A DNA stretch of 43,259 nt from a bacterium (GTDB lineage: Bacteria; Patescibacteriota; Gracilibacteria; Absconditabacterales; Absconditicoccaceae): the NCBI GenBank assembly GCA_043729885.1, contig JAYTKZ010000040.1, positions 1-43,259 of the forward strand, in the 5' to 3' direction. How positions within the stretch are numbered: the stretch's first letter is position 1; every line of letters starts with the position of its first letter. The position numbers were made by a program, and so were the translations under genes. Positions 35,318 through 35,838 of this stretch are shown here, piece after piece. Below the pieces are notes generated by a model. That model was not told the DNA's origin and searched no databases. It saw nothing but the letters and a program-made list of their open reading frames with translations.

Positions 35318-35838
35318 ATGCAACGATATATTGTCGTTCGCATAACAAAATAATATCAACATGCCGGTTAAAAAAGAACTTTCAATGTACCACATCCATG
35401 GTACTGGAGGTATAGGTTACTAGCTCGACAGAGCGAAAACATATACATCCCCGTAAAAAAATTATTAATTTAGTAAAAAACACGCGAGATTGAAAAAAAA
35501 CTTAAAAAGATGTCGAGGACCCACTAGTAGTTAATCTACTTCGAGAAATCGACATATCTGCCAAATTACCACTGGATCATCGCTTGCTGCCAAAATTTAA
35601 TGCTTAGTAAATATTATACAACCGCAGCTAGCAGCTTTTAACCAGTAGGTTTATGATCATCGGGATGCACCGCCGCCGAGCTTAATAGCCCTGGCATATT
35701 GCTCCCGCACCGGAGTTAGTTCACCGCCGAAGACTATGGATCCTAGGGGATAACGGGCTAACAAAACAGTTATAACCGCATGCATTATGCGGATCAAGTA
35801 AAAAAGCCCTCCGGATTTCGGGGGGCTTTCTTCGTTTA
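35318..35838 (+). ncRNA. Unidentified structured non-coding RNA candidate (GC-rich island)
   Basis: No ORF on either strand even under code 25 (dense TAA/TAG). GC clearly above surroundings. TTGACT-16 nt-TAATAT at 35284-35311. Several long-range complementary segments. Terminator gccctccg-gattt-cgggggc plus T-rich tail at 35805-35838. Confidence 0.5.

Follow-up and report, generated by a model that had tools for sequence, protein, structure and literature searches.

A predicted transcription unit between murF and a pilin-like gene

The window, that is, the whole 43,259-nucleotide stretch of contig JAYTKZ010000040.1 (assembly GCA_043729885.1), comes from an AT-rich genome (window GC = 33%) whose closest relatives, found with a murF search, are metagenome-assembled genomes labelled Candidatus Absconditabacterales. 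UGA is a sense codon here: open reading frames (ORFs) of ≥100 amino acids total 17,182 amino acids with code 25/4 versus 3,874 with code 11. Between murF and a gene for a T4SS_pilin-like protein lies a gap of 844 nucleotides (nt), 35075–35918. No other stretch of the window free of protein, rRNA and tRNA genes is as long or as GC-rich: the GC fraction of the gap is 0.36–0.475, as opposed to 0.23–0.30 in the other tRNA-free intergenic regions. With TAA and TAG as the only stops, no ORF longer than 74 codons is found in any frame of this gap. It contains, on the plus strand, the unit analysed here, in which a short ORF precedes a predicted GC-enriched RNA. Related loci were gathered via murF, the pilin-like protein and its homologues, and contig look-ups; 27 loci were fetched, and are labelled with L and a number.

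Starting from murF, the unit begins with a sigma-70-type promoter, whose −35 and −10 boxes are kept in L009, L025 and L027 (TTGACT-16-TAAAAT there); the extended promoter pattern occurs once in the window, with 0 occurrences expected. A scan of viral contigs with a promoter pattern gave 0 matches. The predicted transcript opens with a hairpin that is present in both the minimum free energy (MFE) and centroid folds, and the stem of which is retained in L009 through two double changes (AACGA/TCGTT to AACAG/CTGTT). At the other end, the unit runs into an intrinsic terminator common to the converging pilin-like gene, with a T-tract that is interrupted on the plus strand, and each related unit ends in a terminator hairpin of its own, with compensatory changes. 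An earlier note on this DNA, made from the letters alone, had pointed to the promoter-like pair and to a terminal hairpin with a T-rich tail. The promoter stands, as does the 12-pair hairpin, but the terminator turns out to be bidirectional and the better T-tract is that of the minus strand.

Positions 35284–35838 of the plus strand thus appear to form a discrete unit with its own predicted promoter and terminator, which would yield a transcript of approximately 510 nt, with predicted ends near 35318 and 35830. The MFE z score for the whole region is about −3 on both strands and so does not decide between them; the plus strand was assigned from the promoter, the short ORF and comparison with relatives. 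Features of the unit, its counterparts in other loci and its flanks are collected in Table 1.

Table 1 Features of the unit, its relatives and the flanking genes. Positions are those of the window; MFE, minimum free energy.
Feature	Position or locus	Strand	Details
Sigma-70-type promoter TTGACT-16-TAATAT	35284–35311	+	points from murF toward the pilin-like gene
5′ hairpin AUGCAACGAUAUAUUGUCGUUCGCAU	35318–35343	+	5′ end of predicted transcript; in MFE and centroid folds
Short ORF, ATG to TAG	35361–35423	+	20 codons, peptide MPVKKELSMYHIHGTGGIGY; conserved in relatives
ORF counterpart	L015		same offset; peptide MPESKLYSCSSTGGISY
ORF counterpart	L027		same offset; peptide MNKANYKHCRFKLCAGAGGIAY
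ORF counterpart	L025		same offset; peptide MSGTFRGKQHIGFSAGGISY
ORF counterpart	L009		same offset; peptide MVKKTGSRNCCSAGGNPG
Stop-codon hairpin GCUC-GACA-GAGC	35423–35434	+	begins at G of TAG; compensatory changes in relatives
Nested hairpin	35509–35559	+	conserved block ATGTCGAGGNCCCACT; in MFE and centroid folds
Three-tier core hairpin	35568–35650	+	loop block GCTTAGTAAA; outer helix 35568–35575/35642–35650; second helix 35582–35590/35624–35632
GC-richest segment	35651–35775	+	two copies of CACCGCCG; poorly conserved; GC to 0.475; many gaps versus L015
Pre-terminator hairpin CCGCAU-GCAUU-AUGCGG	35776–35792	+	followed by conserved block GATCAAGTAAAAAAGCCC; CGGC-UAUAU-GCCG at aligned position in L015
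Intrinsic terminator	35803–35838	both	12-pair hairpin 35803–35829; T-rich tails on both strands
Unit in slot	window		~510 nt
Unit in slot	L009		~700 nt
Unit in slot	L025		~575 nt
Unit in slot	L027		~960 nt; extra SET-domain gene beside
Unit in slot	L014/L017		~335 nt
Unit in slot	L021		cut by contig end
Sense-strand MFE z score	window, 5′ half	+	−3.0
Sense-strand MFE z score	L009		−4.5
Sense-strand MFE z score	L014		−3.7
Sense-strand MFE z score	L025		−2.7
Sense-strand MFE z score	L021		−4.0
Upstream region common with divergently transcribed murF	35075–35283		GC-rich palindromic repeat words; 82% identical to L009
murF	33653–35074	−	flanks the gap
T4SS_pilin-like gene	35919–36836	−	305 amino acids; Pfam T4SS_pilin match

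A conserved short reading frame ending in a hairpin

All five members with a complete 5′ end carry a frame of 17–22 codons that runs from ATG to TAG at the same distance from the promoter, despite indels. The earlier note had concluded that neither strand holds an ORF; the frame at 35361–35423 overturns this, and it is also missing from the gene calls stored for the examined loci. The C terminus of the peptide reads (T/A)-G-G-I-x-Y directly before the TAG stop in four of the five members, and the N-terminal halves differ. In the four typical members, the five conserved codons have five variable sites, of which four are third positions (hypergeometric P = 0.017), the changes being ACT/ACG or GCA/GCT, GGA/GGT, ATA/ATT and TAC/TAT. 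The degenerate pattern GGNGGNATHNNNTAYTAG has a single match in the window, against 0.01 expected, and among the 27 loci it matches only these units (L025, L027, L015/L016 and the window-identical L007/L008). The window ORF is free of UGA codons. No other short ORF in the body is conserved between the window and L015.

The start of the ORF has the AT-rich context, without a Shine–Dalgarno (SD) sequence, of the 34 other genes of the window: an SD-like motif is absent from the 20 nt before each of those 34 starts, and all are ATG codons after an AT-rich leader. Ribosomes of this organism thus seem to initiate independently of SD pairing, and the absent SD at the short ORF is no objection to its translation. 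With its frame kept in five lineages and its variation at third positions, the small ORF is conserved as a coding sequence, as a dual-function RNA requires, and it is presumably translated.

The stop codon itself is part of a short hairpin, the counterparts of which at this position are GCCC-GACA-GGGC in L027 and GCC-UUCG-GGC in L015. These compensatory differences between the window, L027 and L015 indicate that the stem is kept, and the short ORF with its stop-codon hairpin is, among the sequences compared, the most conserved element of the unit.

The proximity of ORF end and hairpin could also be taken the other way, with the unit as a purely non-coding structured RNA, the ORF untranslated and its apparent conservation that of an RNA motif, GGAGGUAU...UACUAGC, with the adjacent hairpin. 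The conserved codons do adjoin the conserved hairpin, the peptide lacks conservation in its N-terminal half, GGAGG is retained in four of five members, and the L014/L017 unit has no ORF at all. We consider this improbable, given the concentration of variation at third codon positions and a frame that is unbroken between ATG and the aligned TAG in each of the five members, across indels; nor could the GGAGG act as an SD here, as no gene of the window has one.

Conserved C termini before a structured stop are also known from arrest peptides. The TnaC, SecM and Erm leaders have a very short ORF with conserved C terminus and stop context, a variable N terminus and RNA structure after the stop, and the unit resembles them in its conserved C terminus and stop context and in the structure that directly follows the stop. 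As a regulatory leader peptide, the ORF would cause ribosome stalling or slow termination at the stop-codon hairpin and so control downstream RNA, for example by read-through past the weak plus-strand terminator to give RNA antisense to the pilin-like operon. Besides the peptide pattern, in which C terminus and stop-codon identity are conserved and the N terminus varies as in TnaC, this would suit the overlap of hairpin and stop codon, the interrupted plus-strand T-tract and the convergence on pilin-like genes in four complete loci and the partial L021. We nevertheless give it only a small chance. Unlike the known leaders, the unit has no same-strand gene downstream at the locus, no known arrest motif and approximately 400 nt of RNA between ORF and terminator; the neighbours differ in L015, and a body with a C/G ratio of 1.07–1.44 offers no clear Rho-loading site. 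A cis-regulatory leader of another kind (riboswitch, T-box or attenuator) was rejected: such a leader would precede a regulated gene on its own strand, but the predicted transcript stops at a terminator opposite the 3′ end of a converging gene.

Two further peptide classes were tried and rejected. The window peptide has a grand average of hydropathy (GRAVY) of −0.21 and the unit peptides are hydrophilic or Gly-rich (GRAVY −0.21 to −0.66), so they are not the small hydrophobic membrane peptides of a type I toxin–antitoxin system, in which an overlapping antisense RNA is also expected, and no convincing antisense promoter pairs with the ORF. Mycofactocin MftA is a precursor of a ribosomally synthesized and post-translationally modified peptide and ends in ...CGVY with a conserved C-terminal Tyr. 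The unit peptide is similar to MftA in having about 20–30 residues and a Gly-rich, conserved C terminus ending in Tyr, but the spacing is G-I-x-Y rather than G-V-Y, the L009 peptide ends in Gly (GGNPG in place of GGIxY), and the 10 scanned neighbours of the unit include no radical-SAM or other maturation gene, whereas a mycofactocin precursor has mftB and the radical-SAM maturase gene mftC beside it.

A long, GC-enriched and fast-evolving putative 3′ RNA

Downstream of the ORF, the members have a 3′ body of approximately 400–850 nt, within a total unit length of 335–960 nt. In the window, GC reaches 0.42–0.475 at 35500–35800 against approximately 0.32 locally. The GC-rich island described in the earlier note is thus real, although only the 3′ half, some 250 nt, is GC-rich, and it is the AT-richer 5′ half that folds better than expected, the GC-rich part having a z score of +1.0. 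Two long-range pairings proposed there, agatgtcga/tcgacatatct and gcttgctgc/gcagctagc, recur in both the MFE and the centroid folds, and the word caccgccg is indeed present twice, at 35669 and 35723.

Several helices of the body are preserved in relatives. The window and L015 share 62% identity in an alignment of 471 nt, in which the conserved blocks include ATGTCGAGGNCCCACT, TTAGTAAA, AGCAGCT, TATGATCA and GATCAAGTNAAAAAGCCC; the first of these is kept together with the inner GUAG/CUAC stem of the nested hairpin. A profile of these two sequences finds L009 with its matches in the same order (nhmmer, E 0.03) and also picks up the 5′ part of L027 (E 3e-6). The core hairpin is the clearest case: 35565–35661 and its counterparts in L015 and L009, each folded separately by MFE, adopt the same architecture, and in the core alignment (A5) 84.6% of cells pair, as opposed to 22–50% when the partners are slid, with both partners altered in 4 pairs. 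Pairing is likewise retained, through sequence changes, in the pre-terminator hairpin and in the terminator. Sense-strand folding is better than antisense in all five units with z scores in Table 1, clearly in three and marginally in L009 and L021.

The GC content is also a property of the unit beyond the window. In four of five lineages it is 0.41–0.44 in loci averaging 0.32–0.34, about 10 points above genome level; maintained across lineages whose murF proteins are ~69% identical, this enrichment argues for selection and not for recent import. We describe the 3′ RNA, as far as comparison of these relatives goes, as long, GC-enriched, locally structured and fast-evolving.

One motif of the body was noted separately. 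CCGCC is found on the sense strand in six of seven units (window 35669–35730, and the bodies of L015, L009, L027, L025 and L021) and its complement GGCGG in one of seven, a skew reached by 4 of 2000 simulations; the motif was picked post hoc and is a lead only. Sense-strand enrichment of CCGCC and CACCG, chosen post hoc, fails multiple-testing correction and was rejected, as was a Rho-loading (rut-like) reading of the GC-rich part, with its C/G ratio of only 1.07–1.44.

The speed at which this body changes makes a simpler account worth weighing, in which the unit is a micropeptide mRNA and the long 3′ region a fast-drifting tail of untranslated sequence, at most a stabiliser against exonucleases, that has no separate role as an RNA. 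The five members with a complete 5′ end have only the ORF in common, the body diverges past recognition and varies in length between ~400 and 850 nt, and its GC-rich stretch has a z score of +1.0. A small genome would, however, be expected to delete 400–850 nt of useless DNA; GC content ~10 points above background in long-diverged lineages (murF 69% identical) argues for selection; hairpins are conserved with compensatory changes; and in L014/L017 an RNA without the ORF has a core more conserved than the flanking genes. The micropeptide mRNA is accordingly a serious alternative, though we regard it as unlikely.

Distribution and turnover among relatives

The slot between murF and the pilin-like gene is not always filled. 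In L001, L018, L019, L023 and L026 there is no unit and the two genes lie ~35–150 nt apart. Five lineages have a unit in the slot (Table 1), and L009, L025, L027 and L014/L017 repeat its layout: a strong promoter directed away from murF, then a body that contains no long ORF, then a terminator hairpin. Four complete loci, and the truncated L021, have the unit facing pilin-like genes in convergent orientation; in L027 the SET-domain gene separates the two.

Differences are sharp even between close strains. The flanks of L009 are 98.9% identical to the window over 4.1 kb, yet the unit is barely alignable, and identity drops exactly at 35917; contig L010 begins exactly at this position, as expected if strains differ there. 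The closest homologue, L015/L016, is found at another locus, beside a SelR-domain gene, where L015 keeps the ORF, body and terminator and has a different upstream region. Between L014 (561–740) and L017, a 180-nt core is 99–100% identical with flanking genes at 95–97% and edges rich in indels, and these units give a local match to window 35599–35664 (z 5.9).

The unit appears to be confined to one clade of Absconditabacterales (SR1, code 25), in which, judged by its distribution, it is an accessory gene that varies, moves or is lost between species. Sharp variation within a species combined with loss or movement between species fits an accessory function, possibly under diversifying selection, better than a core function.

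Known families and mobile DNA

The unit matches no described family in the searches made. All 4227 Rfam 15 models were run with cmscan, at the gathering score on the whole window, at E ≤10 on 35000–36000 and at E ≤1 in six related loci. At the gathering score, the window gave only 23S rRNA and tRNAs; 35000–36000 at E ≤10 gave only sub-threshold terminator look-alikes (Phe_leader, IS128 and ctRNA); and the units of L009, L014, L017, L021, L025 and L027 had no family match. RNase P RNA of type A or B, with its P4/GGAAAGUCC core, had no match at the gathering score or at E ≤10, and no covariance model of signal recognition particle (SRP) RNA, 6S RNA, OLE, GOLLD, ROOL, raiA or HEARO matched the window or the related units. 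ARAGORN finds four tRNAs and no tmRNA in the window, there is no match in the tmRNA clan, and the unit is not conserved as a single-copy gene among relatives. Our literature search found nothing relevant on non-coding RNAs in Absconditabacteria or the Candidate Phyla Radiation (CPR).

These results agree with the earlier note that tmRNA, RNase P and SRP RNA do not fit, and they bear on its suggestion of a divergent housekeeping RNA (tmRNA, RNase P RNA, SRP RNA or 6S RNA), in favour of which one could cite the raised GC content against an AT-rich background, the separate promoter and terminator, and one faintly tmRNA-like string. That string, ggttactagctcgacagag, proves to be the end of the ORF (GGT TAC TAG) followed by the conserved GACA-loop hairpin that overlaps the stop codon. 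The unit does combine a short reading frame with structured RNA, as tmRNA (SsrA) does, but unlike tmRNA it has no tRNA-like domain or CCA end, its ORF starts with ATG and not with a resume codon, its peptide lacks the usual ...LAA-type tag end and it is not conserved as a housekeeping gene. A housekeeping RNA would, moreover, have to escape cmscan to E = 10 at 35000–36000 and to E = 1 in the six related loci, and ARAGORN as well; range in length from 335 to 960 nt; be nearly unalignable in a 98.9%-identical strain; be absent from the slot in five relatives; and have its closest homologue at another locus. Because of this pattern of presence and absence, strain replacement and relocation, the housekeeping reading is effectively excluded.

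The same turnover could be produced by decaying foreign DNA or a functionless mobile-element remnant, such as a pseudogene or an element resembling a miniature inverted-repeat transposable element (MITE), in an insertion hotspot. The slot is empty in five loci, differs between strains and holds an unrelated 153-amino-acid ORF in L013, the GC content is above that of the genome, and repeat words resembling repetitive extragenic palindromic (REP) elements adjoin. Six-frame translation, however, gave no Pfam signal for the unit, and tblastx among the units matched only the common upstream region, on which grounds a pseudogene was rejected; blastn against phages and plasmids gave no match. A MITE or other small mobile element was likewise rejected, with no convincing flanking repeats, terminal inverted repeats or target-site duplication and no further copy either in the window or at the other loci. 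With promoter, ORF, hairpins and terminator kept across lineages with murF ~69% identical, we consider a decaying insert very improbable.

Genome setting

Pfam was used to scan the proteins around the unit at 20.4–26.5 kb and 33.3–40.0 kb; a 1949-amino-acid protein and two small ORFs lie between these ranges, at 26.5–33.3 kb. The 10 neighbours scanned are two T4SS_pilin-like proteins, a glycosyltransferase, an ABC transporter, an amidase, a DUF4153 protein and four proteins of no assigned family, murF having been identified separately; there is no modifying enzyme, exporter, regulator or radical-SAM gene among them. The 1949-amino-acid protein (27447–33296), just upstream of the 117-amino-acid gene that adjoins murF, has no Pfam family in the look-up table.

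The upstream region between murF and the promoter contains GC-rich palindromic repeat words, with copies also at 12896–12921. Such words (GTCATCCCGGACTTGATCCGGGATCC; ATTCTGAGCGCGCGAAGAATCT and its inverse) recur between genes at 35091–35143, 12896–12921, 25006–25034 and 26511–26537 of the window, and look like REP-type elements of this genome. In L009 the same words are found at 21–42 and 921–949, where the inverted pair brackets the whole unit. Upstream of the unit promoter in L025, at 4655–4720 (minus strand), there are about three tandem copies of CACATCGAACTATACATATGT, then the REP-like GTCATTTAGAACGAAGTGAGAAATCTC. A different intergenic repeat of ~125 nt, detected through a match of L009 2902–3025 to window 13734–13858, is present in two distant intergenic regions of the window (13734–13858 and ~37868–37991) with 85% identity.

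The slot of L013, from a more distant lineage, contains the unrelated ORF on the minus strand of that locus (4990–5450) in the same orientation, preceded by a perfect TTGACA-16-TATAAT promoter and followed by a hairpin terminator; its only Pfam match is sub-threshold. At the far end of the window, the 23S rRNA gene (40527–43259) has no 16S gene upstream inside the window; before it are a gene for a 239-amino-acid protein (39289–40008) and a 528-nt AT-rich spacer, and its cmscan alignment shows an insertion of ~75 nt relative to the bacterial consensus near 40786–40860.

Discussion

The combination of a conserved short ORF and a long structured RNA leads us to propose, tentatively and at not quite even chances, that the unit is a lineage-specific transcript built in the manner of RNAIII/hld. 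The promoter would drive a transcript of ~510 nt that opens with the 5′ hairpin. Its 20-codon ORF would be translated into a micropeptide ending in Gly-Gly-Ile-x-Tyr, with a hairpin overlapping the stop codon, and ~400 nt of GC-enriched RNA with several conserved hairpins would follow, up to the terminator common to the neighbouring gene. This 3′ RNA would be kept for a role at the RNA level, for example in transcript stability or through contact with a target or partner. Regulatory activity of the RNA part would be in keeping with its GC enrichment, sense z scores of −2.7 to −4.5 and conserved hairpins.

A small ORF joined to a structured RNA is an arrangement with precedents as a kind. Staphylococcus aureus RNAIII is 514 nt long, with 14 stem-loops and a 5′ region encoding the 26-amino-acid delta-hemolysin (hld), and the Pel RNA of Streptococcus pyogenes is a dual-function RNA of 469 nt (PMC12612679). 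Both are, like the predicted product of the unit, single transcripts of ~0.5 kb with their own promoter and terminator, and RNAIII/hld also has the small ORF in its 5′ region with many stem-loops after it. By this analogy, the transcript probably acts in two parts, through presumed roles of peptide and RNA. As opposed to RNAIII, the unit has no sequence or Rfam similarity to it and no agr-like genes beside it, its 3′ domain evolves much faster with a two-fold range in length, and its base-pairing activity and its translation are putative; unlike delta-hemolysin, the peptide is not hydrophobic or amphipathic (GRAVY −0.21). Another comparison is with the orphan structured RNA candidates that the GC-IGR approach of the Breaker laboratory finds in long, GC-rich intergenic regions of AT-rich genomes; the unit, too, is long, GC-rich, structured and without an Rfam family. 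The unit differs from these in its conserved translatable short ORF and in that most of the RNA is too divergent to define a motif. The earlier note's "new large ncRNA" is correct insofar as the element is discrete, mostly non-coding, partly structured and outside Rfam, and has to be amended for the conserved short ORF.

Several observations weigh against an RNAIII-like transcript. On the side of the peptide, the ORF comparison comprises five sequences, one of which, L009, departs from the C-terminal motif with SAGGNPG (G-G-N-P-G); the L014/L017 units lack the short ORF and yet have a conserved core; and no partner gene is found nearby among the scanned neighbours. On the side of the RNA, the segment 35600–35800 in the GC-rich half is no more stable than shuffled sequence. 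Shuffling gives a weak control for the core hairpin, with three sequences: of 500 shuffles, 16 attain the observed paired fraction and 55 the observed covariation score. A covariance model of this hairpin (R1) matches only its three training sequences and nothing in L025, L027, L021 or L014. Bodies other than those of the window, L015 and L009 are not alignable (L-INS-i with RNAalifold was uninformative), and the RNAalifold consensus of window and L015 is poor, at −38 kcal/mol over 507 columns.

A bolder version of the proposal would have the unit as a hypervariable "peptide plus RNA" module of code-25 Absconditabacterales, with alleles exchanged between lineages under diversifying selection and a part in strain recognition, signalling or interference, in the manner of pheromone types. 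The module is usually located beside T4SS-pilin-like genes and might supply an RNA or peptide cargo, or a regulator, for that apparatus. We see only a slim chance that this is so. Absconditabacterales are CPR bacteria thought to live attached to, or to prey on, other cells, and interest in the unit would rise if its allelic diversity and its position beside T4SS-pilin-like genes reflect interaction or signalling.

Knowledge of regulatory RNAs and micropeptides is very scarce for CPR bacteria, the small genomes of which are not expected to keep 0.5–1 kb of useless sequence. Should the unit prove to be just the mRNA of a peptide, trailing a drifting tail, the finding would be a modest one, another lineage-specific small gene. 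In either case, GC-rich "non-coding islands" in recoded genomes that lack SD sequences should be checked for very short ORFs before they are called non-coding RNAs. As an element that differs between near-identical strains and moves between loci, the unit is a testable candidate for an accessory regulatory or interaction module, and, if the hypervariable-module reading is true, the first effector of RNAIII type to be described from the Candidate Phyla Radiation.

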